Below, in pieces: positions 4,648 to 44,282 of a DNA stretch of 64,000 bases (position 1 is the stretch's first letter; the number at the start of each line of letters is the position of its first letter). The translations under genes were made by a program, and so were the position numbers. The notes under the pieces were generated by a model. The model was not told the origin of the DNA, made no database searches, and saw only the letters and a list, made by a program, of their open reading frames with translations. This DNA is from Desulfotomaculum sp. Its GTDB lineage: Bacteria; Bacillota; Desulfotomaculia; Desulfotomaculales; Nap2-2B. The stretch covers positions 16,018-80,017 of the forward strand of contig DMZI01000037.1 in NCBI GenBank assembly GCA_003485325.1, read 5' to 3'.

Positions 4648-5967
4648 TTATTCGCCGCCGGCGCCTTCACTTCCTTCTGAACTCCCTTTACCGGCCTGCC
4701 CTTCCTGGACCGATTCAATATTCTTTATCTCACCCGGAATCTCGACCTCTACTTTCTTTCCTTCCTGGGTCGTAATTTTTAACTTGGTCTTGGCATTATT
4801 CTGTTTGCTGCCTGAGCCGCCTTGTCCCTGGCTCTGGCTGCTTCCGCTATCCCCGCTGTTTTCCTGGCTTTCACTTCCCTGTTCCTTGCTTTCCTGCCTG
4901 CCTCCCTGCTTTTGTTCCTTGCTCCAACGCTGTTCAAGCAGGTAGGAGTTGTTTTTTTGAATCAGCTGTACAGGGACGATCCTGGCTGGAACACCGTAAT
5001 CTCCGTTTAAAATACGGTTATCATACTGCAAGCTGCCCGTTTTGGAAAGGCTGACCGCCGCGTCATAGGCATACTGGCCGACTAATTCGGGCATGGTATC
5101 TATCTCTGCATTATGTTCACCTTCAATTAACGCCCGTGAAGATTCCTCATCCGCCCCCACCCCGACTGTGATCACATAATGACTGGAACCCCGGAATTGC
5201 AATGCTTTTACATACTCCATAACGAGGCGGCTGTCAGTGGCCAATATGGCGTCAATCCCGCTGTTGTTATATTTATTTAAAAACTGGTCCGCTGTCATCG
5301 CGCCCAATCCGGGCTCATTCTTAAGACAGACGATTTCTTCGATAATCTTTACACGCGGCTCTTTATTTAACTCATCCCGGATTCCGGCAACTATTTCGTT
5401 TGAAATTTGATCCCTCTGGTCCCCCCTTAAAATAAAAGTATTCAAAAATTGGCGCCTTTCTACTCCGGGGAAAACCTGATTTGTGTAACCGCCATTAAGC
5501 GCCTTAAGCAGGTAAATTGCTTCCAACCTGCCGGCTAGAATATGGTCTGAAGTTATATAGCCGTCTACCGGAACATTCCTTGGCAAAGTTTCCAGGGCTA
5601 ACACTTTTATGTTTGCCCTTTTAAAACGTTCGATAACCGGATTAACCGACGTTGGATCTACAGGTTGGACAATTAAAGCTTTCAGCTGTTTTGTTCCCTT
5701 CTGCAAAAGCTGATCGAGCTGTTTGATTTGTTCCTGGGCGTCGTTTTTCGCATCTAAAAATTCAATTTTGGTATCTTCTTTTTTACTTCTCTTCATCATT
5801 TCCTGCTGGATGATTTTGTTTCCGTCCAGCCGCAAATCAGAAAAGGATACGGCAAGGTTAAGACTCTCACTGATTGGTTTTCTTTCTGCTTGCTGACCGC
5901 AGCCGTTTACTATAACGAGGCATACCGCTATTATTAACGGGAATATCCGTTTTAACGCAATGAGCAT
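4648..5967 (-). CDS. sugar-type periplasmic substrate-binding lipoprotein with a low-complexity C-terminal tail
   Basis: Signal peptide plus lipobox (LVIVNGC), followed by an RbsB/LacI-like type I binding fold. The last ~90 aa are Gly/Ser/Gln/Glu-rich. No ABC permease or ATPase is adjacent. The stop lies 16 nt upstream of the uvrB start. Confidence 0.65.
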   Translation of the reverse strand: MLIALKRIFPLIIAVCLVIVNGCGQQAERKPISESLNLAVSFSDLRLDGNKIIQQEMMKRSKKEDTKIEFLDAKNDAQEQIKQLDQLLQKGTKQLKALIVQPVDPTSVNPVIERFKRANIKVLALETLPRNVPVDGYITSDHILAGRLEAIYLLKALNGGYTNQVFPGVERRQFLNTFILRGDQRDQISNEIVAGIRDELNKEPRVKIIEEIVCLKNEPGLGAMTADQFLNKYNNSGIDAILATDSRLVMEYVKALQFRGSSHYVITVGVGADEESSRALIEGEHNAEIDTMPELVGQYAYDAAVSLSKTGSLQYDNRILNGDYGVPARIVPVQLIQKNNSYLLEQRWSKEQKQGGRQESKEQGSESQENSGDSGSSQSQGQGGSGSKQNNAKTKLKITTQEGKKVEVEIPGEIKNIESVQEGQAGKGSSEGSEGAGGE

Positions 5968-6105
5968 TTATATCCCTCCTGTTTTTAAACCTATCAATAT
6001 TATGCTTAATCCAGGAAGCAAATATGAAATCCGCATGAATATGTACTTAATTCCAAATTTCAGTCATACAAATTAATTCAGGATGAAAAAGAAAGGTGTG
6101 ATTGG

Positions 6106-6408: not shown

Positions 6409-7043
6409 CAATATGCTGAGTAATGGCCGGGGTCTACAAGCTCGCGGTACTTGGCCACTACCTGCTTGAAATCTTCCCAGGTTTCCTTTTTCAGGTTTGG
6501 ATTGCGCAAGAGGGCCGCCGGATGGTATGTGGGCATTATATAAAGTTCACCTTTTTTTACCCAGTTGCCCCTTTCACGTGTTATTTTGCCCTTTGGATCC
6601 AGTAAAGCCTGTAGAGCGGCGGCGCCAAGCAAAACAAGGATCTTTGGCTTTAGAATTCGCAACTGGGCCTGCAGGTTAGGGCTGCAGGCTATAATCTCTT
6701 CTGCGATGGGAGTTCTGTTGCCCGGAGGCCGGCACTTGACAACATTAAGGATGTATGCGTGGCTGAATCTTTCAAAACCGCAGACCTGCAGGATTTTATC
6801 CAGCAATTGCCCTGCCCTGCCAACGAACGGCCTGCCCTGCAAATCTTCATCTGCTCCCGGTCCCTCACCGCAAAGCACCAGGTTTGCTTTTGGACTGCCT
6901 TCTCCAAATACCACGCCCCGGCATCCGCTGCGCAGGGCGCATCTGTTACAGGTTTTTACCTTCACTTCCAGTTCGGCAAGATTATCGAACCCGGAAAGGT
7001 CCCAAACCGGATTGGACAATAAGTTATGTTCGTCAAAAAACAA
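6405..7043 (-). CDS. uracil-DNA glycosylase, family 4 (Fe-S type)
   Basis: Motif GEGPGADEDLQGRPFVGRAGQLL and N-terminal cysteines CNRCALRSGC, with C-terminal HPAALLR. Confidence 0.85.
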   Translation of the reverse strand: MFFDEHNLLSNPVWDLSGFDNLAELEVKVKTCNRCALRSGCRGVVFGEGSPKANLVLCGEGPGADEDLQGRPFVGRAGQLLDKILQVCGFERFSHAYILNVVKCRPPGNRTPIAEEIIACSPNLQAQLRILKPKILVLLGAAALQALLDPKGKITRERGNWVKKGELYIMPTYHPAALLRNPNLKKETWEDFKQVVAKYRELVDPGHYSAYC

Positions 7044-7097
7044 TCCCGTACCCCTCCTGCATATGTTTAGAAGATAAATACAACAGGAAATAAGGGG

Positions 7098-7286
7098 TTA
7101 TTCCTTTTCCAGGATTATTTTATGGTCAACCAGAGCAAGCTCGGCAATCTTTGCTTTGATTATTTTACGCCGGCCAAAAATATCTTCCAGGATAAGGCCG
7201 TCTTCCCGGGGAATTACTTTATCCACGGATTCGAAAAACAACTCCTCAAGACCGCCTTCGCGCAGATATGCGTTTGCTTCACACAA
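7098..7286 (-). CDS. CooT-family small protein (putative nickel-binding)
   Basis: The ORF track starts at ATG 7301 (MVVGVL-CEANAYL). An in-frame TTG at 7286-7284 gives MCEANAYLREGG...DHKIILEKE. This matches the family N-terminus Met-Cys-Glu and its ~62-aa size. GGTGGG lies just upstream. Confidence 0.6.
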   Translation of the reverse strand: MCEANAYLREGGLEELFFESVDKVIPREDGLILEDIFGRRKIIKAKIAELALVDHKIILEKE

Positions 7287-7492
7287 AACGCCCACCACCA
7301 AAAATAATAAACTACCGCGTTGCTGCAGCCGCTTTAAAAAATTATATTACCCTTCAAATTAACTTGTCAACGGTCATCTTTTAAGGGCCAGCGATACCAG
7401 TGGGAAAGTGCCTTTTCAGTACTATAACTTTTAGAAAAACCACTCTTTCCTAGTTCAAGGCCGGGCGGCGGCGCCTCCAGAAATACCAGGAT

Positions 7493-8542
7493 TTAAGGTA
7501 GTATAATAATGTTAGTTACCACAGGACGCTCTTTGCCGTCTGAAGGACGGTTTAAGACATTGCCCTCGAATACAAATGAACTTGATCCACCGCCATCTAG
7601 GTTATAAGCCTCAATTATACCAAATTCAATCAACTTAATCTGCAGGTCTTCTAAAGTAACTCCACTGCTCCAATCAGCTTGGCGCCCATCAACAACAGCT
7701 AAAATCAAATCGTCATTGCCGTATTCACCGATAATGGTCCTGGGTTGTTTCTGATTCTGCCACTTAATAGGTATATGTAATGGCTTGCGATTCTTTATTA
7801 AGGCAGGAACAAAACTAACCCCGGCTATCGGTTTAAGCTTTAACAACTCATTTTTTTCATAAAAAACACCACCTAGTAGTTCCCCTGTCGAATCTATTCC
7901 GGCAAAAAATAGGTCATTATGCGAAGGGTTAAACCCACCAATTAACTTACCGTTAATAACGGTATTGCCAATGGGCAGGGTGTATTGCCGCCCATCCTGC
8001 ATTATGTGATAAAAACCACCGCCGTTTACTCCCAGTACCGCACCGGTCCGCTTAACTGCAGCGCTGGTAATCTCGCTTTCACCCAGAGTGTCCTTGCCTA
8101 AAACTATTTGGAAAACAGCGGGATCAAATAATTTAAGCTTAGCGATATAACCCCGGTAACCTAAACCCTTAAGTTCAAATACCTTAATCTGTACCCTGTC
8201 GGAATGGTGCTCGCCAATAGGCATCCCCAACCGGTTCATTATGATCTTTTCATATATTTCATCAGACAACTTTTTTTGTGACCATGTTTTTTGGGTGAGT
8301 TCTTTTAACATACTCTCATTCTCTTGTTGCAGACGTTCCAGTTCCACAGCGTTTAGTTTTATGAAGCCAATCTCTTGCTCCATATTTAAGATATCATGCT
8401 GTAGCTTTTCTGTGGACGACACTATCTTTTTCAGGGGGATTTGCATCATATCAGCGTGACCATGAAGGGCATAGTAAACACCACACAATAAGCCGGATAA
8501 GGGAATCAGCAGGCTGACAAAAAAAATGTTAATAATCCACAT
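7493..8542 (-). CDS. membrane-anchored phosphodiester glycosidase family protein (DUF2233/NAGPA-like)
   Basis: N-terminal TM helix, a coiled-coil segment, then a C-terminal domain carrying YNLDGGGSS. Confidence 0.6.
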   Translation of the reverse strand: MWIINIFFVSLLIPLSGLLCGVYYALHGHADMMQIPLKKIVSSTEKLQHDILNMEQEIGFIKLNAVELERLQQENESMLKELTQKTWSQKKLSDEIYEKIIMNRLGMPIGEHHSDRVQIKVFELKGLGYRGYIAKLKLFDPAVFQIVLGKDTLGESEITSAAVKRTGAVLGVNGGGFYHIMQDGRQYTLPIGNTVINGKLIGGFNPSHNDLFFAGIDSTGELLGGVFYEKNELLKLKPIAGVSFVPALIKNRKPLHIPIKWQNQKQPRTIIGEYGNDDLILAVVDGRQADWSSGVTLEDLQIKLIEFGIIEAYNLDGGGSSSFVFEGNVLNRPSDGKERPVVTNIIILP

Positions 8543-8915
8543 TGCCGGATTCCTGCAAAATACTAAGACTTTTTTTCAGTTCTTTTAACTGTTTATCCAT
8601 TTCCTCAATACGTTTTTTAACTTCCTCGCTTGCTGTTCCGGTGCTGGATAAAGTTTTATCCGTATGTGTCAGAGACTCCTTTATAATTTTCATTTCAGTG
8701 CTTAAAGACTGTATTTTTTCCTCCAGATCCTGCACGTTTAATGCATTAGTTTCTTGAATTTCCAGGGCCATTTGGTCAATGTACTGTCTGGCATACCAGA
8801 AACCCCCTGCGAAAAGGCCTGCCCATAAAAGTACTAGCGCTAGGATTACCCGCAACTGGTTGAAACCAACTGTTTTTTTAGCTTCCCTTTCCTTTTCCAA
8901 CCCTATAACCCCCAA
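8529..8915 (-). CDS. membrane-anchored coiled-coil protein, unknown function
   Basis: 128 aa with one TM helix (VILALVLLWAGLFAGGFWYA) and a heptad-like C-terminal half. It overlaps the downstream gene by 14 nt. The start is TTG in the ORF track and is uncertain. Confidence 0.4.
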   Translation of the reverse strand: MGVIGLEKEREAKKTVGFNQLRVILALVLLWAGLFAGGFWYARQYIDQMALEIQETNALNVQDLEEKIQSLSTEMKIIKESLTHTDKTLSSTGTASEEVKKRIEEMDKQLKELKKSLSILQESGNVDY

Positions 8916-9385
8916 ATGGAATTATTTTAACCCTGATAGATTAGTTCACCACTTTATTCCATTCGTTTTCCATCTCCAAGCATAACTTTTACCTAAAGAT
9001 ACAGGCTAAGATATAAGCTCTAACCTGCCTGTTAGTAAACGTCTTGCGTAGTATTAGTTCACTTTGCATGAATCTCGAAATCCTGAATTAATTTTCTGAG
9101 CTGTTATTGGTGGGCGATTACGCAAACATAACTGCCATTCAGCAATCAAAGGCAGCGCCTTAGCTGTTTTTTGCAGATATTATAAACGACTTCAACGTCA
9201 TAGATAATACTTTACTTGATCTATGGAGGACATATCTTTTGCATACATGGTCTGGTCTTCAAGCTGACGTAAATACCAATTATGGATTGGCAGTAGGATC
9301 AGGGGTTCTCAGTTCAATTCTGGTAGATTTTCCTGGACAACACTTTTTGCTAATAATTAACCTATTTTTCTCTGTCTTATATTTA

Positions 9386-10612
9386 TTAACGATTCTCTAT
9401 TTGTATAATTTTACCCTCCCATGTGCGTAAGAAAACTTTATCTTTTTGTATTTTCTGGATGTAGTTGGGCATTATCGGTATCTTGCCAAGTCCACCCGGG
9501 GCATTAACGATGAACGTAGGTATTGCCAGCCCAGAGGTGTGACCGCGTAACGACTCCATAATATTCAGTCCTTGGGCAATGCTTGTTTGAAAATGACAGG
9601 TCCCCTGCACATTCTTGGCATGAAATATATAGTAGGGACGGACCCTTATTTTCAATAACTCTTGACATAGTTTTCTCATTACAAAAGGCTCATCATTAAT
9701 CCCGCGTAGCAAAACTGCTTGATTGCCGAGCACAACTCCGCCTTCGGCGAGCCGATCGCAGGCTAATTTAGCCTCAGGAGTAACCTCCAGAGGATGATTG
9801 AATTGGGTATTGATAAAGATTGGCGGATACTTGCGTATAATGTCAACTAGCTCCGGAGTGATTCTCTGTGGCATGGTTACCGGGATCCTGGTTCCGATAC
9901 GCTTTATTTCGACATGAGAAATGTTGTGCAGCTTGTCCAGGATAAATTCTAATGTCTGATTGCTGAGCATCAAGGCATCTCCTCCGGTAATAAGCACATC
10001 CCGGATTTCTTTATTTTGGGCAACGTAATCAATTGCTGCGCCAATATCTTCCAGACATGCATGTTGATCAACTTCTCCAATATTGCGTCTTCTCTGGCAG
10101 TGACGGCAGTACATTGCGCACTGGTTAGTTACATTGATAATCATACGGTCTGGATACCTGCGAGTCACACAGGGAGCTGGTGAGGTAGTCGCTTCGTTCA
10201 TTGGATCCAGACTGCCTCCTGGAGCCAACTCTCTAATATCAGGAATAGCCTGACGGTATATGGGACTACTCTGAAAATCTTCAGTTAACAAACTTAGATA
10301 ATAGGGAGAAATGGCCCATCGATAAAGTTTGCCTACTTTATCGATGCGTTTTTTGTCAAGGTCACTTAAACCGATTATTTTGGCTAAAACTACACTATCT
10401 TTAATCCGGTTCCTAAGCTGCCATTTCCAATTAACCCAGTCCTCCTCTGTGCCATCCAGAACTTCCAATATTTTTCGCTTTCTTTTTGCAACTTGTTTTT
10501 CCATATCAGGCAACGATTTTACGTGCTCCAGGAAAGAGAGAGTGTCCTTTTTAAGTTCTTTGCTTCTAAGTAAAGATTGGGACAGATTATCCGTGTTCCC
10601 TGCTTCTCTCAT
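9386..10612 (-). CDS. KamA-family radical SAM aminomutase, glutamate 2,3-aminomutase-like
   Basis: CAMYCRHC (CxxxCxxC) cluster motif and end-to-end similarity to lysine 2,3-aminomutase. However RPYYIFHAKNVQG and FIVNAPGGLGK carry Lys and Asn where LAM has the lysine-binding Asp293 and Asp330. The SD AAGGAG precedes ATG 10612. Confidence 0.7.
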   Translation of the reverse strand: MREAGNTDNLSQSLLRSKELKKDTLSFLEHVKSLPDMEKQVAKRKRKILEVLDGTEEDWVNWKWQLRNRIKDSVVLAKIIGLSDLDKKRIDKVGKLYRWAISPYYLSLLTEDFQSSPIYRQAIPDIRELAPGGSLDPMNEATTSPAPCVTRRYPDRMIINVTNQCAMYCRHCQRRRNIGEVDQHACLEDIGAAIDYVAQNKEIRDVLITGGDALMLSNQTLEFILDKLHNISHVEIKRIGTRIPVTMPQRITPELVDIIRKYPPIFINTQFNHPLEVTPEAKLACDRLAEGGVVLGNQAVLLRGINDEPFVMRKLCQELLKIRVRPYYIFHAKNVQGTCHFQTSIAQGLNIMESLRGHTSGLAIPTFIVNAPGGLGKIPIMPNYIQKIQKDKVFLRTWEGKIIQIENR

Positions 10613-10671
10613 GTTATCACTCCTTTTAATTAGTCATAAACAGGTATGTAATAATCGAAAAGGGACGAGGA

Positions 10672-10706
10672 TTAAATAAAAATAAACCAAAGGCAACCCT
10701 CTGGTT
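10672..10706 (-). terminator. intrinsic terminator (expression platform of the c-di-AMP riboswitch)
   Basis: On the minus strand AACCAGAGG-GUUG-CCUUUGGUU is followed by UAUUUUAUUU, located between the aptamer and the aminomutase start. Confidence 0.65.
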
Positions 10707-10721
10707 ATGCTAATATAATAT

Positions 10722-10858
10722 CAAACCCGGATTCCCTTTCGGCGCTTACGAGGTTAGCTGACGGATTCGGGAAAAGGGAATTCCCTGCCAAAATCGGTTT
10801 CACCCCAATAAAAATCGGTTCCCCCGCTCTCTCTTCATAAGAGATTCGGCGCATTTTT
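10722..10858 (-). promoter_or_regulatory. c-di-AMP riboswitch (ydaO-yuaA class)
   Basis: The minus strand reads CGCCGAAUCUC...AGAGCGGGGGAACC...GGGGUGAAAC...CCCGAAUCCGUCAGCUAACCUCGUAAGCGCCGAAAGGGAAUCC. This carries the hallmark GGGGA-CC, GGGGUGAA and CAGCUAACCUCGUAAGCG blocks of the ydaO motif as I remember it. Confidence 0.85.
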
Positions 10859-11114
10859 AAACTGCAGTATCAATTTTAAAGCAGTCAATACATGGGCATA
10901 CTCCGTTCGCTTGTTTTTATAATCTTAGATAATAATTCAATATCATTTAAGATTGGTTTTTATATTTATGATAAACTGTATTTGTGGCAGAATTACGGAA
11001 CAATTCAATAGACGTATAAAATTATTTTTAGATTGACTACTTCATATATTTTTGCCACAATTCTGACCTATACTATAAATAAGTTAAAAAGGAGACAGAG
11101 ATATCCTTAAAGAG

Positions 11115-11798
11115 GTGGTTACTTTGCAGACTGTTTTTGTTATAGATGATGAAGTGAATATACGGGTATTAATCACTCAGTATCTCCAAAAGGAAGGTTT
11201 TAAGGTAGAAGCTTTCGGCAGTATCGAGGAACTAAACCACCGTTTGAAGGAGAGATATCCAGATATGTTCATCCTGGATATAATGCTGCCCGGACAGGAC
11301 GGCCTGGATTTTTGTCAAAAAATCCGGGAGCACAGCTGGGTTCCGATAATATTTATTTCGGCGCGCCGCCAAGCTTTAGATCGTATTACGGGGCTTGAAA
11401 TAGGCGGGGACGACTATTTGTCAAAACCTTTCAGCCCTCGTGAACTAGTAGCACGTGTGCACTCAGTGCTTCGCCGCACGAAGAATATTCCTAAGACAGG
11501 ACAATACTTTCAAGTTAACAACCTTAAATTGCGTCCCAATGACAGATTGAGCCTGGTCAATGAATGTGAAATTGGTTTGACTAACAGGGAGTTTGACCTG
11601 CTTCTACTGCTTGTTCAGCATCCCCAGCGTACTTTCAACCGTCAAGAGTTGCTGGACAAAATCTGGGGCTATGATTATATGGGATCAGAACGAGCCGTAG
11701 ACGACCTGATCAAACGCTTGCGCAAGAAGTTAAGGAAGAGCGGTTCAAAAACCAATATTCAAACTATATGGGGTTATGGGTACCGACTAGATGGGTAA
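11115..11798 (+). CDS. OmpR-family response regulator
   Basis: Receiver domain (VIDDE...LDIMLPGQDG...SKPF) plus a winged-helix output domain (IWGYGYRL). The start is GTG. Confidence 0.9.
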   Translation: MVTLQTVFVIDDEVNIRVLITQYLQKEGFKVEAFGSIEELNHRLKERYPDMFILDIMLPGQDGLDFCQKIREHSWVPIIFISARRQALDRITGLEIGGDDYLSKPFSPRELVARVHSVLRRTKNIPKTGQYFQVNNLKLRPNDRLSLVNECEIGLTNREFDLLLLLVQHPQRTFNRQELLDKIWGYDYMGSERAVDDLIKRLRKKLRKSGSKTNIQTIWGYGYRLDG

Positions 11799-13191
11799 AC
11801 TGCAAAGCATATCAACTAAAATAGTTATAAGTTATCTGGCTGTGGTGATTTCAACCATACTAGTAACAGCTTTAGCCTTTTATCCAATGTTGATAGAAGT
11901 TTTAGAAAAACGAGCTGAGATTGGTTTAGAAAAGCAGGCCTGGGAAATATCACATGCTATTCTGTCCCGTCAGTCCGGCTTATTAGTAAATGGAGAATAT
12001 GATTTTCCCCTAACCATAATCCTACTAGGCCGATCGGTAGAAAGTGATTTTTTATGTCTTAATACCCAGGATAAAATTGTTTTTAGCAGTAAACCAGAGC
12101 TGTTTTCTTCCGGTCTGTCATTATCTCAGTTGGCGGTAAAGTTACGTAAAGAGGAGACATTTGACAGGAATAAGTCTAATATCTTTAAGAGTGAAAGTTA
12201 TCTAGCGGCTGAAGTGCCTATAAGGTCGTCTGCCGGGTTAGAGGGAACGGTAATGACATTTATAGCTTTCAGCACTTTGCATGCCTTGTACTGGGAGATG
12301 CTGTTATTGTTCTTTGGCTGTTTTTTAATCGCCCTTATAGTCGCCCTTATAATAGCTTTCTTCTTGATTCACTATCTTGTAAGACCTCTAAGAAGGTTGG
12401 AAGAATATGCAAAGGCTGTGGGCAATCGCCAGTTTGATATTCGTTTAGAGACTAAGTCAAATAACGAATTGTCCCAGTTAGCTGCTGCTTTAAACCAGAT
12501 GGCTGATCAGCTGAAAAGCCATGATGAGGGGATGCGCCGCTTTTTTCGGAATGCTTCCCATGAGATGAAAACACCCTTGATGAGCATTAATGGTTACGCT
12601 GAAGGTATTCGTGATGGTATTTTTACCGGTCCAGAGATAGAAAATGCTATCGAAATTATTCATAAAGAAAGCTTACGCATGAGAAACTTAGTAGAAAACA
12701 TGATAGATATTTCCATCCTTGAACAGCCGCATAAGAATTATTTTCTCCCTCATGATCTTTACTATATTATAGAAGAGTGTAGAAGGACTGTCGGCGGTTA
12801 TGCCATGGAAAAGAAAATAGAAATATTATCTTTGGTGCAGAAGAATACTTGGGTCAGCGGTGACTGGGATCAATTGTGCAGTCTTTTGATCAACCTCTTG
12901 TCCAATGGAATTCGTCATGCTAAAAGCTTTGTCAAAGTTAAGTCTCAGACTATTGATATTGAAAATAAGGTACTAATAACAGTACATGATGACGGCGCTG
13001 GTTTTAATACGGAAGATCTAAATCATGCTTTTGAATATTTTTATACCGGCGTAAACGGGGGTTCCGGTCTTGGTCTTCCGATAGTAAAGAAAATCGTCAC
13101 TGAGCATAACGGGCAGGTCAGAATTTATAACTCCAGCCAAGGCGGCGCAATAGTGGAAGTCGTTTTATGGGCGGCAAAGGGTGTGAGTTAA
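11791..13191 (+). CDS. sensor histidine kinase (HAMP-HisKA-HATPase)
   Basis: Two TM helices, a HAMP domain, the H-box FFRNASHEMKTPL, the N-box LLSNGIRHA and the G-box DDGAGF...GGSGLGL. It overlaps the regulator gene by 8 nt. Confidence 0.9.
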   Translation: MGKLQSISTKIVISYLAVVISTILVTALAFYPMLIEVLEKRAEIGLEKQAWEISHAILSRQSGLLVNGEYDFPLTIILLGRSVESDFLCLNTQDKIVFSSKPELFSSGLSLSQLAVKLRKEETFDRNKSNIFKSESYLAAEVPIRSSAGLEGTVMTFIAFSTLHALYWEMLLLFFGCFLIALIVALIIAFFLIHYLVRPLRRLEEYAKAVGNRQFDIRLETKSNNELSQLAAALNQMADQLKSHDEGMRRFFRNASHEMKTPLMSINGYAEGIRDGIFTGPEIENAIEIIHKESLRMRNLVENMIDISILEQPHKNYFLPHDLYYIIEECRRTVGGYAMEKKIEILSLVQKNTWVSGDWDQLCSLLINLLSNGIRHAKSFVKVKSQTIDIENKVLITVHDDGAGFNTEDLNHAFEYFYTGVNGGSGLGLPIVKKIVTEHNGQVRIYNSSQGGAIVEVVLWAAKGVS

Positions 13192-14408
13192 CCGCGGACA
13201 AGTTTTTTCAATAACTGTCCAAAAGTTCTTTTTGCTCCTAAATCCAGGTATGCTTTTTCGAAGCCGTCCGGCGCCGGGATAAAACCAAGAATTTCTTGAT
13301 TTTCCGGGACTGTAGCTGTTCCCCTTTTAAATATCTGATCCTGGCCATGCAAAAATTCTACCTCGCAATAACGTTCTTCCGTTAAAAACATACCCGGCGG
13401 CGTTTCGCTGGAAACTTCCCGGCCGTTTATTGTTAAAATTACATCACCGGAACGGACACCCGCTCTCCAAACAGGCGTATCTACCAAAACATCAAGCACA
13501 CGTAAGCCCTGATCAGTTGGAACGTAAAGCGGCTTACCCTTTAACTCCAGTTCCTTACCAAGAAAAATAACCAGCTCATGCCCTAACGGAGAAAACAAAG
13601 CAGCAATAAAGGCAGCCGTCCGCATATCCTGAGACAGAAAACTCAAAAACAACAGTATAACACTGTAAATTCCCAGGTACAGTGCTGATAATCTGCTCTT
13701 TTGATTCGGATTATGGGAGATGGCCAAATCTCCGTATCCCAGGCAGGCTACAACAGGAATAAGTCCATAAGCCAAATATCCCGGTCCTCCTGAAAAAGAG
13801 GTTTTCAGAAGGGGCCACCAGCCAGGCATACTGTCAAAGCTGATCGGGTTACCTGCTATAGATAACACTGCTATAGGAATCGGCCATATTTTCTGTAAAT
13901 TAAATCCACCGACCAGACGCCCGTCCGGAGTCCTGAAATAGGCGGGGACAGCCCCGAGATGGCCGCTTACCAGGATAAGCACACTTTCAACCATGTGTAA
14001 AACGGCGACAAGGGCTAAAACCTGGGCTATGTTCAAGGAAGGAAAACCAAAAATAAGGTTAGCCAGGGTAAGTATTCCGCCTGCATAAGCAAAGCATAAA
14101 AAACGGGGGTTGATCAACATTAACAGGACGGCAATCGGCCACAGGTAAAGAAGGCTGGAACCATTAAGGCTTAAACCAACCGTGACAATCAGCATACTGC
14201 CAACCAGCCCGCCTATGATTCCATATGCCATTGCGGTAAGTATATCCGGCCAAACCCTTTTTGTAACAACGCCAAACAAGCTGTCCCTTGCCGCAGCCAT
14301 GTGCCTGTACTGCAAAGCTACCAGGCCAACGACGAGCCAGAAAACCCACTCAGTAAAAACATTGGCTAAAGAAGCCATTATCTGCCATAGATTATTTATT
14401 AAAAACAA
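13188..14408 (-). CDS. polytopic membrane protein with C-terminal PDZ domain (MinJ-like)
   Basis: Many TM helices followed by a PDZ domain (LRVLDVLVDTPVWRAGVRSGDVILTINGREV). It sits beside ctp and ftsEX, as in the Bacillus subtilis minJ...ctpB-ftsX-ftsE neighbourhood (from memory). Confidence 0.55.
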   Translation of the reverse strand: MFLINNLWQIMASLANVFTEWVFWLVVGLVALQYRHMAAARDSLFGVVTKRVWPDILTAMAYGIIGGLVGSMLIVTVGLSLNGSSLLYLWPIAVLLMLINPRFLCFAYAGGILTLANLIFGFPSLNIAQVLALVAVLHMVESVLILVSGHLGAVPAYFRTPDGRLVGGFNLQKIWPIPIAVLSIAGNPISFDSMPGWWPLLKTSFSGGPGYLAYGLIPVVACLGYGDLAISHNPNQKSRLSALYLGIYSVILLFLSFLSQDMRTAAFIAALFSPLGHELVIFLGKELELKGKPLYVPTDQGLRVLDVLVDTPVWRAGVRSGDVILTINGREVSSETPPGMFLTEERYCEVEFLHGQDQIFKRGTATVPENQEILGFIPAPDGFEKAYLDLGAKRTFGQLLKKLVRG

Positions 14409-34047: not shown

Positions 34048-35088
34048 TTAAAACCTCTTTAAACGCGGCGAATGGGTTATTCCCGGAATGCGCCCCCGCT
34101 TGGCAACCGGTTTTCCATCAACTTCTTTCAGATCCATTGTCATATCGATGGGCGGGGCGGATGATATATAGCTTCCTACTCCGAAAGAATCCGCGCCTGC
34201 CCTGTCAAGGACAACTATACGTTCAGGCGTTATACCCCCGCTAACCAGAATTTGGACATGTGAAAAGCCCCCCAGGTCAAGACGCGCCCTTATTTCACGG
34301 ACCAGTGAAGGTGTAACCCCGCCTCTTTCGCCGGGCGTATCCATCCTGACACCACTCAACCTTTCCTTCAGGGCTTCGGCGACCCTCAAGGTTTCCTCGG
34401 CTTCATCCTTGAAAGTATCGACCAGTATGATTACTGGCGCCCCCTCGGGCATAATCCGCCTGTAGATATCCGCAACCTTTACCGTATCGCCCAGGATAAG
34501 AATTACAGCATGAGGCATTGTTCCGGTTGGTTCCCGGCCGGCCAGTTTTGCCCCCAGAATACAGCTTGCTCCGTCCGCGCCGCCGATAATAGCAGCCCTT
34601 TCCATAACGGGCGCAACGGCGGGATGTACGTGGCGGGCGCCAAAGCAAACAACCTTTTTCGCGCCGGCGGCATCCTTGCACTGTCTGGCTGCCGTTGCCC
34701 AACCGCTTGAACTGGCTAAGATGCCCAGTAAGGCAGTTTCAAAGATTCCGAAACTATCATAGAGGCCGCTGATGCGCATAACAATCTCTTTTTCCCGGAA
34801 AGACTCACCCTCCTGAAGGGACCAAAGCTCAACACCCGTATCCTGCAACAGGCTTTTAACTTCGGGAACGCCCGCTAATATACCCGCATGCCGCGCAAAA
34901 ATTTCCGCTGTAACCGGAACCTGATCCAGCCCGGTTTCTTTTAAAATTTCCCTGGCCTTTACAAAGTAGATATCTGTAGTCCAGCCCTCTTTTATTTCCT
35001 GCTCGCTGGCGGAAAAAAGAAGCCTGTCAGGTGATATGGTGAGCTCTCCAATTTCCTTTAAGCTCCGCACCGTTTGGAACCGTCCCAC
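34048..35088 (-). CDS. nicotinate phosphoribosyltransferase-family protein (type II PRTase)
   Basis: 346 aa with GTMPHAVILI, ILVDTF and VRMDTPGERGG. The GTG start lies 3 nt after the ribH stop. Confidence 0.65.
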   Translation of the reverse strand: MGRFQTVRSLKEIGELTISPDRLLFSASEQEIKEGWTTDIYFVKAREILKETGLDQVPVTAEIFARHAGILAGVPEVKSLLQDTGVELWSLQEGESFREKEIVMRISGLYDSFGIFETALLGILASSSGWATAARQCKDAAGAKKVVCFGARHVHPAVAPVMERAAIIGGADGASCILGAKLAGREPTGTMPHAVILILGDTVKVADIYRRIMPEGAPVIILVDTFKDEAEETLRVAEALKERLSGVRMDTPGERGGVTPSLVREIRARLDLGGFSHVQILVSGGITPERIVVLDRAGADSFGVGSYISSAPPIDMTMDLKEVDGKPVAKRGRIPGITHSPRLKRF

Positions 35089-35091
35089 AAA

Positions 35092-35571
35092 CTATTCTTC
35101 CTTTCCGCCGGAAATTGCCTTAAGCAAATTGGCCATCTCGATGGCCATTTCAGCAGCGCTTCCGCCTTTATTCCCCGCTTTGGTTCCCGCACGTTCAATA
35201 GCCTGTTCGATACTGTCGGCAAGGATAACCCCAAACGTAACAGGTACTCCGCTGTCCAGGCTGATCCTGGCCACGCCTCTGGATACCTGGGCCGCCACAT
35301 GTTCGAAATGCGGGGTCGCGCCGCGAATTACAGCGCCGAGGCAAACAACAGCGTCAAAACGCCCAAGGCCGATCATTTGGCGGGCTACCGCAGGTATTTC
35401 AAAGGCGCCCGGAACCCAGGCCACTTCTATGTCATCGTCGGCAACCCCATGGCGCTTCAGCGTATCCAGAGCGCCGCTTAAAAGACGGTTGGTAATGAAC
35501 TCATTGAAACGTCCGACCACCACCCCGAATTTTAAACCCTGGCCTATTAAATTACCTTCGTAAACCTTCAA
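35092..35571 (-). CDS. ribH: 6,7-dimethyl-8-ribityllumazine synthase
   Basis: 159 aa with GRFNEFIT...VPGAFEIP...[14 protein letters not shown]. Confidence 0.95.
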
Positions 35572-35608
35572 TTTTTCCTCCTCCTTTTTTAATCAAAACT
35601 AAAAAATA

Positions 35609-36823
35609 TTAACCGTCTATTTTTAATAAATGTCCTAACTTGTTCTTTTTGGTAGATAAATAAAAACGGTTGTCAACTCCCGGAGAAATTTCAATGGGAA
35701 CTCTTCTGATAACTTTCAGACCGTATCCCTCAAGACCGACGATTTTTCTGGGGTTATTGGTCATCAGGCGTATTTTTTCCAGACCGAGGTCCGCCAGAAT
35801 TTGAGCTCCAATACCATAATCCCTCAAGTCAGGCGGAAAGCCGAGTTCTTCGTTAGCCTCGACTGTATCCCTTCCCTCGTCCTGAAGCTTGTAAGCCCTG
35901 ATTTTATTTAAAAGGCCAATTCCCCGCCCTTCCTGGCGCATGTATAAAAACACGCCGGCGCCTTCCTTTTCGATCATTTCCAGCGCCCTGGTGACCTGAT
36001 CACCGCAGTCGCAGCGCAACGACCCAAAAACATCCCCTGTCAGGCACTCCGAGTGAACCCTGACCAGCGGGGCTTCGACGGCGCTTAGATCGCCTTTTAC
36101 CAGCGCAAGATGCCCCTTTCCGTCAAGGGTACTTTCATAAGCTGCCGCGATGAAATCGCCATACCTGGTGGGAAGCTTCGCCTCATCAACCTTTCTGATG
36201 AGTTTTTCCGTACGCCTCCTGTATTGAATAAGATCAGCCACGGTAATAATCATTAGTCCGTGAAGGCTGCAGAATTTCATCAGGTCATCCACGCGGGCCA
36301 TTTTCCCGTCTTCTCTCATTATTTCGCAAATAACCCCGGCCGGAAAGCACCCTGCCAGCCTGGCCAGGTCCACTGAAGCTTCGGTATGGCCGGCCCGGCG
36401 GAGAACGCCGCCTTCCTTGGCCCTTAAAGGAAAAACATGGCCGGGACGCCTCAAATCTTCTGCTGAAGTCGTCGGGTCCAGTATCGCCTTAACTGTGAAA
36501 GCTCTCTCAAAAGCCGATATGCCTGTAGTAGTTTCCCTGTGGTCGACAGAGACAGTAAAAGCAGTGCCGTGAGGGTCGGTGTTATTGATCACCATAGGCG
36601 GCAAATTCAGCTCGTCCAGCCGCTCGGCCGCTAAAGGCATGCACAGAAGCCCCTTCCCGTATGTAACCATGAAATTAATTGCCTCCGGTGTGGCCTTTTC
36701 AGCGGCCATTACCAGATCCCCCTCGTTTTCCCGGTCCTTGTCGTCAATAACTACAATCATTTTGCCCTGTTGTATTTCCTTGATAGCTTCCTCAATAGTA
36801 TTAAACTTATATTCCATTGCCAT
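35609..36823 (-). CDS. ribBA: bifunctional 3,4-dihydroxy-2-butanone-4-phosphate synthase / GTP cyclohydrolase II
   Basis: 404 aa. The DHBP synthase half carries [16 protein letters not shown]. The GCH-II half carries [19 protein letters not shown]. Confidence 0.95.
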
Positions 36824-36859
36824 TTTCCCTTTCCAGAAGATTTTTAACCGGGCCTTTTT

Positions 36860-37516
36860 CTATAAAAATCCCTTATCAGCCAGGAAAGACAAGGATATTC
36901 CATCCTTTTTCTCCCCGGTACCAGGGCGGCCGTTTAATAAAAATTTTTCTATATACTTTCCGATAAGATCCGCTTCAAGATTTACATTATCCCCCGGGCC
37001 TTTATAACCCAGTGTAGTATTTCTGGCAGTATGAGGAATAATTGAAACCCGGAAACTTCGCTCATTAAAATTTACAACGGTAAGGCTTATGCCGTCAACA
37101 GCAACCGAACCTTTTTTAATTAAATAACGCGTTACCTCAACAGGGGCCGAAATATCAAATACCACAGCCAAATCTTCCATCTTTTTCCCTGAAATCACAC
37201 CTACTCCGTCAATGTGGCCACTGACCAAATGCCCACCCAGGCGGCCGTCCAAACGCATCGCTCGCTCAAGATTCAATACATCTCCGGGGCGCAGTTTGCC
37301 CAAGTTGGAACTGGCCAGGGTTTCAGCCATGACATCTGCTGTAAAGAAACCTTCTCCAAGCCTTGTAATCGTAAGGCATACACCATTGACAGCTATGCTA
37401 TCCCCCTGGCGCGCCTGTCTGATGACCTGCCCGGCTTTAATTTTTAATGCTGCGGATGCCGGGCCCCGCATGATTGTTATAAGTTCACCAAGTTCCTCTA
37501 CCAGACCAGTAAACAG
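36860..37516 (-). CDS. ribE: riboflavin synthase alpha chain
   Basis: The conserved N-terminus FTGLVEELGELITI lies upstream of the first ATG (37471). The only plausible initiator is CTG at 37516-37514, with GGGGTG 7 nt upstream, or ATT at 37522. Confidence 0.85.
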   Translation of the reverse strand: MFTGLVEELGELITIMRGPASAALKIKAGQVIRQARQGDSIAVNGVCLTITRLGEGFFTADVMAETLASSNLGKLRPGDVLNLERAMRLDGRLGGHLVSGHIDGVGVISGKKMEDLAVVFDISAPVEVTRYLIKKGSVAVDGISLTVVNFNERSFRVSIIPHTARNTTLGYKGPGDNVNLEADLIGKYIEKFLLNGRPGTGEKKDGISLSFLADKGFL

Positions 37517-37534
37517 TTCAATACACCCCGATCT

Positions 37535-38647
37535 TTAATCACGAAATTGCTTCAGGTAACCCTCCAGGCAAATATCCTCGCCAAACCTTGTTACAGTTAA
37601 GTTTTCAATCTGCGCGGCATCCGCCATCAGTGTTATTCCCCGGCCCCCCACCGGGCCTGGAGACAGCCGCCCGCCGACTATTTTGGGGGCGATAAACCAG
37701 ATTACTTTATCCACAAGGCCGCTTTCCAAAGCTGAAGCGTTTATTTCTCCTCCTCCTTCAATCATCACGCTGGTAATTTCCCGCCCGGCCAAATCCGCCA
37801 TCAACCGTTTTAAATCCACACGGGGCCCGTCTCCCGGCACGACAAGCACTTCCGCTCCCGTTTCTTTCAGCCGGGCAATCTTCTGTACGCCGGCGCCCCC
37901 AGTTGTTGCAATAATTGTCGGCGCTTCCGCCAACTGCGAAAGCACCTGGGAATTTAACGGCGTGCGGGCCAGGCTGTCGACTACAACCCGTACGGGATTT
38001 TTCCCTTTTTCACCAGGCAGCCGGACCGTAAGAAGCGGGTCATCAGCCAGCACAGTATTTATACCCACAAGAACGGCATCGTACAGATTGCGCAAAACAT
38101 GAACCCAGCTGCGGGCTTCGGGTCCTGTAACCCAACGCGAATCCCCTGTACGGGCAGCAATTTTACCGTCCACGCTCATTGCTGTCTTTAACATTACAAA
38201 AGGCCTGCCCGTGGTGATATACTTGATAAAAATTTCATTTAAAAGTAGGGCTTCTTCCTCCAAAACCCCTGTCGTAACTTCCACATTGCGCTGTTTAAGA
38301 TAAGCAATTCCCTTGCCGCAGACCAGCGGGTTCGGATCACTCATCGCTATGACAACCCTGCTTATTCCAGCCTCAACAACAGCATTTGCGCAGGGGCCGG
38401 TCCGGCCGTAATGACAGCAGGGTTCCAGATTTACGTAAAGTGTGGCGCCTTTTGCTTTTTCACCTGCATTGTCAAGAGCGATAATCTCGGCATGAGGGCT
38501 CCCGGCTTTATGGTGGTAACCTTCCCCGGCCACCTTACCGTCATTGACAACCACCGCCCCAACCATAGGGTTGGGGCTTGTTTTTCCCCTGCCCAGCCTC
38601 GCCAGTTCCAAAGCCCTGCCCATATAAAACCTGTCTTGATCATCCAT
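37535..38647 (-). CDS. ribD: bifunctional riboflavin biosynthesis deaminase/reductase
   Basis: CMP/dCMP deaminase motif HAEIIAL...PCCHYGRTGPC plus a reductase domain. ATG 38647 (MDDQDRFYMGRALELA) matches homologue N-termini. The ORF-track TTG at 38668 sits inside the riboswitch terminator loop. Confidence 0.9.
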   Translation of the reverse strand: MDDQDRFYMGRALELARLGRGKTSPNPMVGAVVVNDGKVAGEGYHHKAGSPHAEIIALDNAGEKAKGATLYVNLEPCCHYGRTGPCANAVVEAGISRVVIAMSDPNPLVCGKGIAYLKQRNVEVTTGVLEEEALLLNEIFIKYITTGRPFVMLKTAMSVDGKIAARTGDSRWVTGPEARSWVHVLRNLYDAVLVGINTVLADDPLLTVRLPGEKGKNPVRVVVDSLARTPLNSQVLSQLAEAPTIIATTGGAGVQKIARLKETGAEVLVVPGDGPRVDLKRLMADLAGREITSVMIEGGGEINASALESGLVDKVIWFIAPKIVGGRLSPGPVGGRGITLMADAAQIENLTVTRFGEDICLEGYLKQFRD

Positions 38648-38680
38648 AAATAATAAAAGCCCCGTCAAAACCTCCGGGGC
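38648..38680 (-). terminator. FMN-riboswitch terminator/sequestor hairpin
   Basis: On the minus strand GCCCCG-GAGGUUUUGA-CGGGGC is followed by UUUUAUUAUUU. The GGAGG lies in the loop. Confidence 0.6.
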
Positions 38681-38732
38681 AAAAGTATAACTTTACTCAT
38701 CCTTATAAAAATTATAAGGAGCTAAAGCCTTA

Positions 38733-38860
38733 AAACCTTCTCCCATCCAGACTGTTACTGTCGGCCCTGGATTTTCACCAGATCAGCCATAAAGGCTAGC
38801 GGGCTCAAAACCTAGTCGCTTCTTACCGCCGATAGGGAATTCCACCCGTCCCCGAAGGTG
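38733..38860 (-). promoter_or_regulatory. FMN riboswitch (RFN element)
   Basis: The minus strand reads CCUUCGGGGACGGGUGGAAUUCCCUAUCGGCGGUAAGAAGC...AGCCCGCUAGCC...GAUCUGGUGAAAAUCCAGGGCCGACAGUAACAGUCUGGAUGGGAGAAGGU. This is a near-consensus RFN element. Confidence 0.92.
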
Positions 38861-38874
38861 TTATTTTTATAAAT

Positions 38875-44117: not shown

Positions 44118-44195
44118 CGGGATGTGGCGCAGCTTGGCTAGCGCGCTTGCCTTGGGCGCAAGAGGCCGGGGGTTCAAATCCCTCCATCCCGACCA
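44118..44195 (+). tRNA. tRNA-Pro (anticodon UGG), CCA encoded
   Basis: Hand-folded cloverleaf. Acceptor CGGGATG/CATCCCG, D arm GCGC-AGCTTGGCTA-GCGC, anticodon arm CTTGC-CTTGGGC-GCAAG, T arm GGGGG-TTCAAAT-CCCTC, then A73-CCA. Confidence 0.9.
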
Positions 44196-44206
44196 ACTTT
44201 GACTAT

Positions 44207-44282
44207 GGACCGTTAGCTCAATTGGCAGAGCAGGCGACTCTTAATCGTCAGGTTGGGGGTTCGATGCCCTCACGGTCCACCA
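44207..44282 (+). tRNA. tRNA-Lys (anticodon CUU), CCA encoded
   Basis: Acceptor GGACCGT/ACGGTCC, D arm GCTC-AATTGGCA-GAGC, anticodon arm GGCGA-CTCTTAA-TCGTC, T arm GGGGG-TTCGATG-CCCTC. Confidence 0.9.

Follow-up and report, generated by a model that had tools for sequence, protein, structure and literature searches.

The eam locus and its c-di-AMP aptamer

In a stretch of 64,000 nt from Desulfotomaculum sp. (contig DMZI01000037.1; this whole 64-kb stretch is called the window, positions are numbered within it unless a locus label precedes them, and elements of the minus strand are marked (−)), a gene for a glutamate 2,3-aminomutase-type enzyme, eam, is preceded by a leader which contains an aptamer of the cyclic di-adenosine monophosphate (c-di-AMP) riboswitch class and, downstream of it, an intrinsic terminator (Table 1). 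A scan of the whole window with Rfam models at their gathering thresholds assigned the leader to RF00379 with a score of 90.5 bits (E = 6.7e-20; gathering score, 38), and the match at the same leader was obtained again in a second scan; the alignment covers model positions 1–134 of 134 and is not truncated, that is, the aptamer is complete. The initial annotation of this DNA, which was made without database searches, had recognized a ydaO-class leader by the blocks AGAGCGGGGGAACC, GGGGUGAAAC, and CCCGAAUCCGUCAGCUAACCUCGUAAGCG and had proposed a comparison with RF00379; all three blocks are seen in the minus-strand sequence, and the leader scores well above the threshold. The arrangement of leader and gene is real and far beyond chance, and we are highly confident that eam is under the control of this leader and that the leader is a c-di-AMP riboswitch.

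Within the aptamer, 9 nt of the 3′ tail (AAAGGGAAU, 10739–10731) are perfectly complementary to the loop of a hairpin (AUUCCCUUU, 10781–10773), and this loop and the tail pair with each other in the minimum-free-energy (MFE) fold; the matching segments of the Rfam consensus for RF00379, cucUuuu and aaaGaGaG, are likewise complementary. Loop AUUCCCUUU and tail GAAAGGGAAU presumably form the loop–tail pseudoknot that the structural literature describes for the class. Residues A139, G141, G142, and A144 of the tail region are invariant in an alignment of the window leader with those of 18 close relatives (19 leaders; "leader alignment" in the following).

Table 1. Features of the eam locus in the window and of the ablA-ablB genes next to eam in four related loci
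Feature	Position	Strand	Basis or remark
eam, glutamate 2,3-aminomutase-type radical-SAM/PLP enzyme, 408 aa	9386..10612	(−)	Open reading frame, NCBIfam, Pfam, alignment to 2A5H
c-di-AMP riboswitch aptamer (RF00379, ydaO/yuaA leader class)	10729..10861	(−)	Rfam covariance model
Aptamer 3′ tail GAAAGGGAAU	10731..10740	(−)	Read from sequence
Intrinsic-terminator hairpin: AACCAGAGG, loop GUUG, CCUUUGGUU	10685..10706	(−)	Terminator scan
Terminator U-tract UAUUUUUAUUU	10674..10684	(−)	Sequence, terminator scan
Conserved post-terminator block AAUCCUCGUCCCUUUUCGAUUAUUACAUACCUG	10641..10673	(−)	Leader alignment
Shine-Dalgarno sequence AAGGAGUG	10618..10625	(−)	Sequence; 5 nt 5′ of ATG; conserved in leader alignment
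Conserved box TTCTGCCACAAAT	10980..10992	(−)	Candidate −35 region or operator of the eam promoter
Same box, TTTTGCCACAATT	11050..11062	(+)	Faces the divergent two-component operon
OmpR-family response regulator (11115–11798) and HAMP/HisKA histidine kinase (11791–13191)	11115..13191	(+)	Pfam
ablA (Asp/Asp type), followed by ablB	L005 4489–5766; L006 4492–5790; L007 4466–5770; L027 1301–2581		Family models

Conservation of the riboswitch in front of eam

A protein search returned thousands of homologues of Eam, the closest of which are 62–90% identical and belong to metagenome-assembled genomes of Desulfotomaculaceae, Pelotomaculum, and Syntrophomonadaceae; a scan restricted to one genome per species yielded 482 loci, and the best 80 of these (55–90% identity; labelled L001, L002, and so on) were surveyed. 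Their hosts include Syntrophomonadaceae, Desulfotomaculaceae, Pelotomaculum, Moorella, Desulfitobacterium, Thermosyntropha, Gelria, and others. Four of the 80 loci come without usable upstream DNA; among the remaining 76, RF00379 is found at its gathering threshold directly 5′ of eam and on the same strand in 67, and in 61 of these 67 a terminator-like hairpin with a U-rich tract lies between aptamer and start codon, as counted with a rough hairpin-plus-U scan of our own. Four distant loci (L041, L042, L045, and L052) have CCCUCC...GGAGGG hairpins at the ribosome-binding site instead. The nine loci with upstream DNA that gave no match to RF00379 at its gathering score are L017, L023, L049, L057, L061, L065, L075, L079, and L080; of these, L017 and L023 still have the TGCCACA box that is described below for the promoter region.

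A tandem arrangement with a Na+ riboswitch occurs in only one of the 67 leaders (L055, from Pelotomaculum), the other 66 having no Na+ aptamer, which suggests that the stand-alone c-di-AMP form is the common arrangement for eam. In the window, the Na+ aptamer RF03071 gave no match between 10550 and 11250 even at E ≤ 10; with no RF03071 5′ of the c-di-AMP aptamer, the leader is ruled out as a tandem Na+/c-di-AMP gate of the published kind.

The leader downstream of the aptamer

The terminator hairpin starts 22 nt past the aptamer; its stem comprises 9 bp (in the DNA, AACCAGAGG-GTTG-CCTTTGGTT, then TATTTTTATT) with a folding energy of −12.4 kcal/mol. Hairpin, GUUG loop, and U-tract lie where the initial annotation had placed a clean terminator, and the AAGGAG (10625–10620) it had read in front of the ATG (10612–10610) is there as well. 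All 18 close relatives keep the terminator, with A-U, G-U, and G-C changes in the stem that preserve pairing. No change is seen throughout the leader alignment in the 3′ arm (CCUUUGGU) or in the tail AAAGG, and the 5′ arm alternates between A-U and G-U pairing, as is expected if these segments join alternative pairings; candidates suggested by the conservation are a pairing of the aptamer tail with the 3′ arm of the terminator or one of the loop with the 5′ arm.

The U-tract is followed by a further conserved block (consensus over the 19 leaders: UCUCGGCCCUUUUCGAUUAUGAGCAUUCCUG), which, according to the consensus structure from RNAalifold, can pair with the 3′ tail of the aptamer and thereby enclose the terminator; in the leader alignment 89% of the cells of this block–tail pairing are paired, versus no more than 59% for slid partners. 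The segment CAUUCCU of the block consensus can also pair with the Shine-Dalgarno sequence AGGAGUG, and the block may represent a second, translational layer of control in transcripts that have read through the terminator.

This block, which can pair both with the aptamer tail and with the Shine-Dalgarno sequence, would fit a leader in which the hairpin is not decisive and where translational or other post-transcriptional control, or initiation governed by the neighbouring two-component system, dominates; so would the hairpins at the ribosome-binding site in the four distant loci and the box common to the promoters of eam and of the two-component genes. There is very little likelihood in our view that this is the case, as the terminator and its U-tract are conserved and the changes in the stem keep it paired, as the window itself has CAUACCU in place of CAUUCCU, that is, one mismatch in its anti-Shine-Dalgarno-like segment, and as c-di-AMP brings about termination in vitro in published aminomutase leaders, with less than 5% read-through in the one from Dehalobacter (PMC9337991).

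The enzyme

Among the NCBIfam families, Eam fits TIGR04368 (glutamate 2,3-aminomutase) best, with 646.5 bits over profile positions 4–404 of 404; the model for lysine 2,3-aminomutase (LAM), TIGR03820, gave 457.2 bits, which is 189 bits less and below its cutoff of 525.4, and the one for arginine 2,3-aminomutase gave 370.7 bits. Pfam recognizes the domains Radical_SAM and LAM_C. Like Eam of Clostridioides difficile, on which TIGR04368 is based and with which it was compared via this profile, the window protein is a radical S-adenosylmethionine (SAM)/pyridoxal 5′-phosphate (PLP) enzyme of the KamA family with the residue pair Lys/Asn at the positions discussed below.

The only relative with a solved structure is LAM of Clostridium subterminale (PDB 2A5H). 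The colinearity with this enzyme that had been noticed from the sequence is borne out by a HMMER alignment over residues 53–403 (E = 3.5e-119), in which the CxxxCxxC motif (the CAMYCRHC of the initial annotation, present at residues 165–172 with C165/C169/C172), the Arg triad (RRR), and the PLP lysine (K377 opposite K337 of LAM) are conserved. The two exchanges claimed for the substrate-binding residues are likewise seen: Asp293 and Asp330 of LAM are replaced by K333 and N370, respectively (YIFHAKNVQG versus YIYQCDLSLG and IVNAPGG versus VVDAPGG). Unlike C. subterminale LAM, the window protein further has Glu where LAM has Cys268, lacks the Cys-rich C-terminal segment (of the 416 residues of LAM, the last one aligned is 363), and carries an N-terminal extension of ~40 residues.

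Lys and Asn in place of the two Asp of LAM were reportedly described by Ruzicka and Frey in 2007 as the signature of glutamate 2,3-aminomutase. They occupy these positions in all 81 sequences (the 80 loci and the window), and independent support for the signature comes from the AblA paralogues of L001 and L005–L007, which have retained Asp/Asp (YLYQCDLSEG, VVDAPGG) and score above the cutoff of TIGR03820. One could still take the enzyme to act on lysine or another amino acid rather than specifically on glutamate, as some close homologues are named lysine 2,3-aminomutase or KamA family in the databases and as the TIGR04368 score is 3.5 bits short of the NCBI equivalog cutoff of 650. Against an assignment to the lysine type (AblA/KamA), the LAM model is below its own cutoff and both lysine-binding Asp are replaced; further, relatives have genuine AblA paralogues with Asp/Asp next to eam. 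We consider a substrate other than glutamate highly improbable, and the enzyme is very probably glutamate-specific, as far as its residues and profile scores can tell.

A putative OFF switch for β-glutamate formation

To our knowledge, the characterized members of the RF00379 class are all OFF switches. We propose that the eam leader, too, is a transcriptional OFF switch, made up of a c-di-AMP aptamer and the intrinsic terminator that follows it. At high c-di-AMP, i.e., in a cell replete in K+ and turgor, the bound aptamer would keep its 3′ tail in the loop–tail pseudoknot; with the tail sequestered, the hairpin (10706–10685) would form and RNA polymerase would halt in the U-tract before reaching eam. 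At low c-di-AMP, as expected under hyperosmotic or K+-limited conditions, tail and loop would be free to pair with the arms of the terminator, which would lead to read-through and to formation of Eam. With Lys and Asn as the residues that bind the distal group of the substrate, Eam would then convert L-glutamate to β-glutamate, a metabolically inert anionic solute that could balance K+ during osmotic stress. For this explanation as a whole, we estimate a probability of roughly 70%.

The osmolyte part of this proposal draws on gene neighbourhoods in the relatives. Four loci, L005, L006, L007, and L027, have ablA and then ablB 3′ of eam; the neighbours match LAM (TIGR03820, 626.7 bits) and β-lysine N-acetyltransferase (TIGR03827, 267.8 bits), the enzymes of the Nε-acetyl-β-lysine pathway. 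Between eam and ablA of L005 there is a terminator-like hairpin. A gene for type I glutamine synthetase (TIGR00653, 531 bits) lies 4–110 nt 3′ of eam in L002, L003, and L004, which are more closely related to the window than any other locus except L001. The positions concerned are L002 4245–4359, L003 2437–2546, and L004 3323–3327, and in each of the three loci the conserved N-terminus of the synthetase seems to start at an ATC just past a GGAGG or GGGGG Shine-Dalgarno sequence, which suggests a noncanonical start codon. L001, which is 90% identical in its DNA, has a second c-di-AMP riboswitch (5888–6044 (+), 85.2 bits) that precedes, 1.6 kb downstream, a gene for an Asp/Asp-type lysine 2,3-aminomutase; synteny between L001 and the window stops at ~7492 of the window, and the second riboswitch–aminomutase unit is absent there.

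The presence of ablA-ablB or glutamine synthetase genes next to eam in relatives supports an osmolyte role, and several published observations are in line with it. β-Glutamate is a compatible solute, nonmetabolized and anionic, whose level tracks that of K+, and a glutamine synthetase of Methanohalophilus converts it to the osmolyte β-glutamine (PMC1224877); eam of Moorella is among the genes most strongly up-regulated in blue-light stress, together with a betaine transporter (PMC7835215). The earlier idea that c-di-AMP gates the de novo synthesis of an osmolyte finds support in these gene neighbours, in these two papers, and in the published riboswitches discussed below (PMC9337991). From its context, it is reasonably probable that the product of Eam serves osmotic or K+ balance. 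The riboswitch almost always in front of eam, together with the osmolyte genes beside it in relatives, makes a strong circumstantial case for an osmotic or K+-balancing solute in these syntrophic and sulfate-reducing Firmicutes.

The same glutamine synthetase genes, taken with the Methanohalophilus enzyme, can be read differently, namely that β-glutamate is an intermediate which is amidated to β-glutamine or sent into another biosynthetic or catabolic route; an actinomycete glutamate 2,3-aminomutase, for example, supplies the starter unit of a polyketide (PMC11284099). Control by c-di-AMP would then serve the homeostasis of glutamate and K+, not osmoprotection as such. Next to eam of the window there is no glnA, decarboxylase, or polyketide synthase gene, and most eam loci have no conserved downstream partner, so that we regard a role as intermediate as rather improbable and prefer β-glutamate as the end product and solute.

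Several points weigh against the OFF switch with β-glutamate as osmolyte. Searches for duplexes and MFE folds of the leader gave only several short competing pairings of 5–7 bp and no single clear antiterminator, and the best duplex with the 3′ arm of the terminator has −11.7 kcal/mol versus −12.4 kcal/mol for the terminator itself. No sigma-70-like promoter on the minus strand passed a simple consensus scan. The shortfall of the enzyme against the TIGR04368 cutoff belongs here too, as does the absence of ablAB and glnA beside eam of the window, where the next features 3′ of the gene are an open reading frame of 128 aa without family and a gene for a NAGPA-domain protein. In the literature searched, there is no demonstrated accumulation of β-glutamate in these Firmicutes, and in methanogens evidence from nuclear magnetic resonance spoke against an aminomutase route to the compound (PMC1224877). 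Finally, the case for the window sequence is computational throughout, for the predicted ligand response and antiterminator pairing just as for the presumed substrate and the osmolyte role.

Relation to known systems

The aptamer belongs to the same class as the ydaO (kimA) riboswitch of Bacillus subtilis, the type member of RF00379, for which OFF logic by intrinsic termination was reportedly found by Nelson et al. in 2013. Unlike in B. subtilis, the gene controlled in the window codes for a biosynthetic enzyme and not for a transporter of K+ or osmolytes or a cell-wall hydrolase. With the abl operon of methanogens, which is salt-induced and leads to Nε-acetyl-β-lysine (PMC1224877), the eam locus shares a 2,3-aminomutase for a β-amino-acid solute and the presumed osmotic control; it differs in substrate and product, in the lack of an acetyltransferase gene in the window, and in its control by a riboswitch.

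The closest precedent is the work of White et al. (2022; PMC9337991), who described tandem Na+/c-di-AMP riboswitches 5′ of eam in Desulfotomaculum acetoxidans and Pelotomaculum thermopropionicum and also 5′ of ablA in Dehalobacter sp. CF; the products were stated to be osmolytes, and termination in vitro was controlled by either ligand independently. As in these tandems, the window has a c-di-AMP aptamer and a terminator in front of a 2,3-aminomutase gene for a putative β-amino-acid osmolyte, and the rationale is the same. Unlike them, it has the c-di-AMP aptamer on its own, the tandem form being seen in L055, and its additional features are the conserved block after the terminator and the two-component genes, a conserved divergent neighbour which shares a promoter box with eam. 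The novelty implied in the initial annotation for c-di-AMP-gated osmolyte synthesis does not hold, as the idea had previously been published, including for eam (PMC9337991); apart from that paper, the literature searched held nothing that links c-di-AMP riboswitches with aminomutases. That the control exerted by c-di-AMP extends beyond transport to de novo synthesis of solutes is, in other words, a published idea, to which the present survey adds breadth, with the riboswitch at 67 of 76 loci and in most cases unaccompanied by a Na+ aptamer, and candidate additional layers, but no new principle.

Promoter region and two-component system

The intergenic region upstream of the riboswitch separates eam from a two-component system, which had been noticed earlier as a neighbour and is indeed present, in divergent orientation (Table 1); no recognizable family was found with Pfam for the sensor domain of the histidine kinase. 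Besides the window, 13 loci (L001, L002, L005–L007, L011, L013–L018, and L033) have the regulator–kinase pair divergent from eam, and the two-component system is a conserved neighbour and possibly a co-regulator of eam.

A box of the form TTnTGCCACAwwT has exactly two matches in the 64-kb window, both of them in this intergenic region and in divergent orientation. Fifteen related loci have the exact box 5′ of eam and on the same strand as the gene, and it aligns across the intergenic regions; in some of these 15 there is no two-component system adjacent to eam in the region fetched. The box can be read as a −35-like TTGCCA or CTGCCA, with a TAnnnT-like hexamer 17 nt further on (for eam: CTGCCA, 17 nt, AAATAT), and its plus-strand copy overlaps a promoter-like site at 11033–11061; it may be a shared promoter or operator.

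These features could be combined into a control with two inputs, in which the two-component system would give the signal that stress is present, as the Na+ aptamer does in the published tandems, and would form with the riboswitch an A-and-not-B gate composed of a protein sensor and an RNA sensor. The post-terminator block, which mimics the receptor of the aptamer's pseudoknot and carries the anti-Shine-Dalgarno segment, would add a translational checkpoint in read-through transcripts, and the eam-glnA pairs would provide β-glutamine as a bacterial osmolyte. This combination, taken together, is speculative and we think it rather doubtful; if true, the leaders of the eam-glnA units in close relatives would lead to β-glutamine, so far known only from a methanogen, as an osmolyte of bacteria.

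Genomic surroundings

The description of eam as monocistronic is plausible, since a gap of 470 nt separates it from the next open reading frame on the same strand and since the downstream genes are not conserved with eam; a terminator scan found no convincing terminator after the stop codon to go with it. The claim that eam lies in an AT-rich block is correct in direction, with a GC content of 0.41 for 7000–13200 and 0.43 for eam versus 0.465 for the window, but the difference is mild. About 400 nt 3′ of eam (8964–9362) are missing from L001, whose corresponding gap measures 32 nt; this segment showed no significant repeats, no match to plasmids, and only short open reading frames without support.

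In two of the relatives, a structured element of 131 nt lies between promoter box and riboswitch (two tandem copies at L005 2427–2636; L007 ~2560–2690), the hairpins of which differ between copies by compensatory changes and which has no match in Rfam. As a candidate for a new tandem sensor it was rejected, because its 19-nt core occurs in 116 metagenome stretches, with several per contig; for the same reason it is probably a dispersed intergenic repeat and not specific to the leader.

The Rfam scan of the window gave four matches, namely RF00379, a flavin mononucleotide (FMN) riboswitch, and two tRNA genes. The FMN riboswitch (38731–38863 (−), 110 bits) lies 5′ of a ribD-ribE-ribBA-ribH operon, whose region (34048–38668) also holds a QRPTase-like gene, and the tRNA genes are located at 44118–44279 (+). 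The gene content of the window is that of an ordinary chromosomal region in a spore-forming Firmicute, with genes for FtsK, UvrB, FtsEX, an M23 peptidase, CtpB-like proteases, an H+-pyrophosphatase, Obg, Spo0B, Gpr, and RecG.

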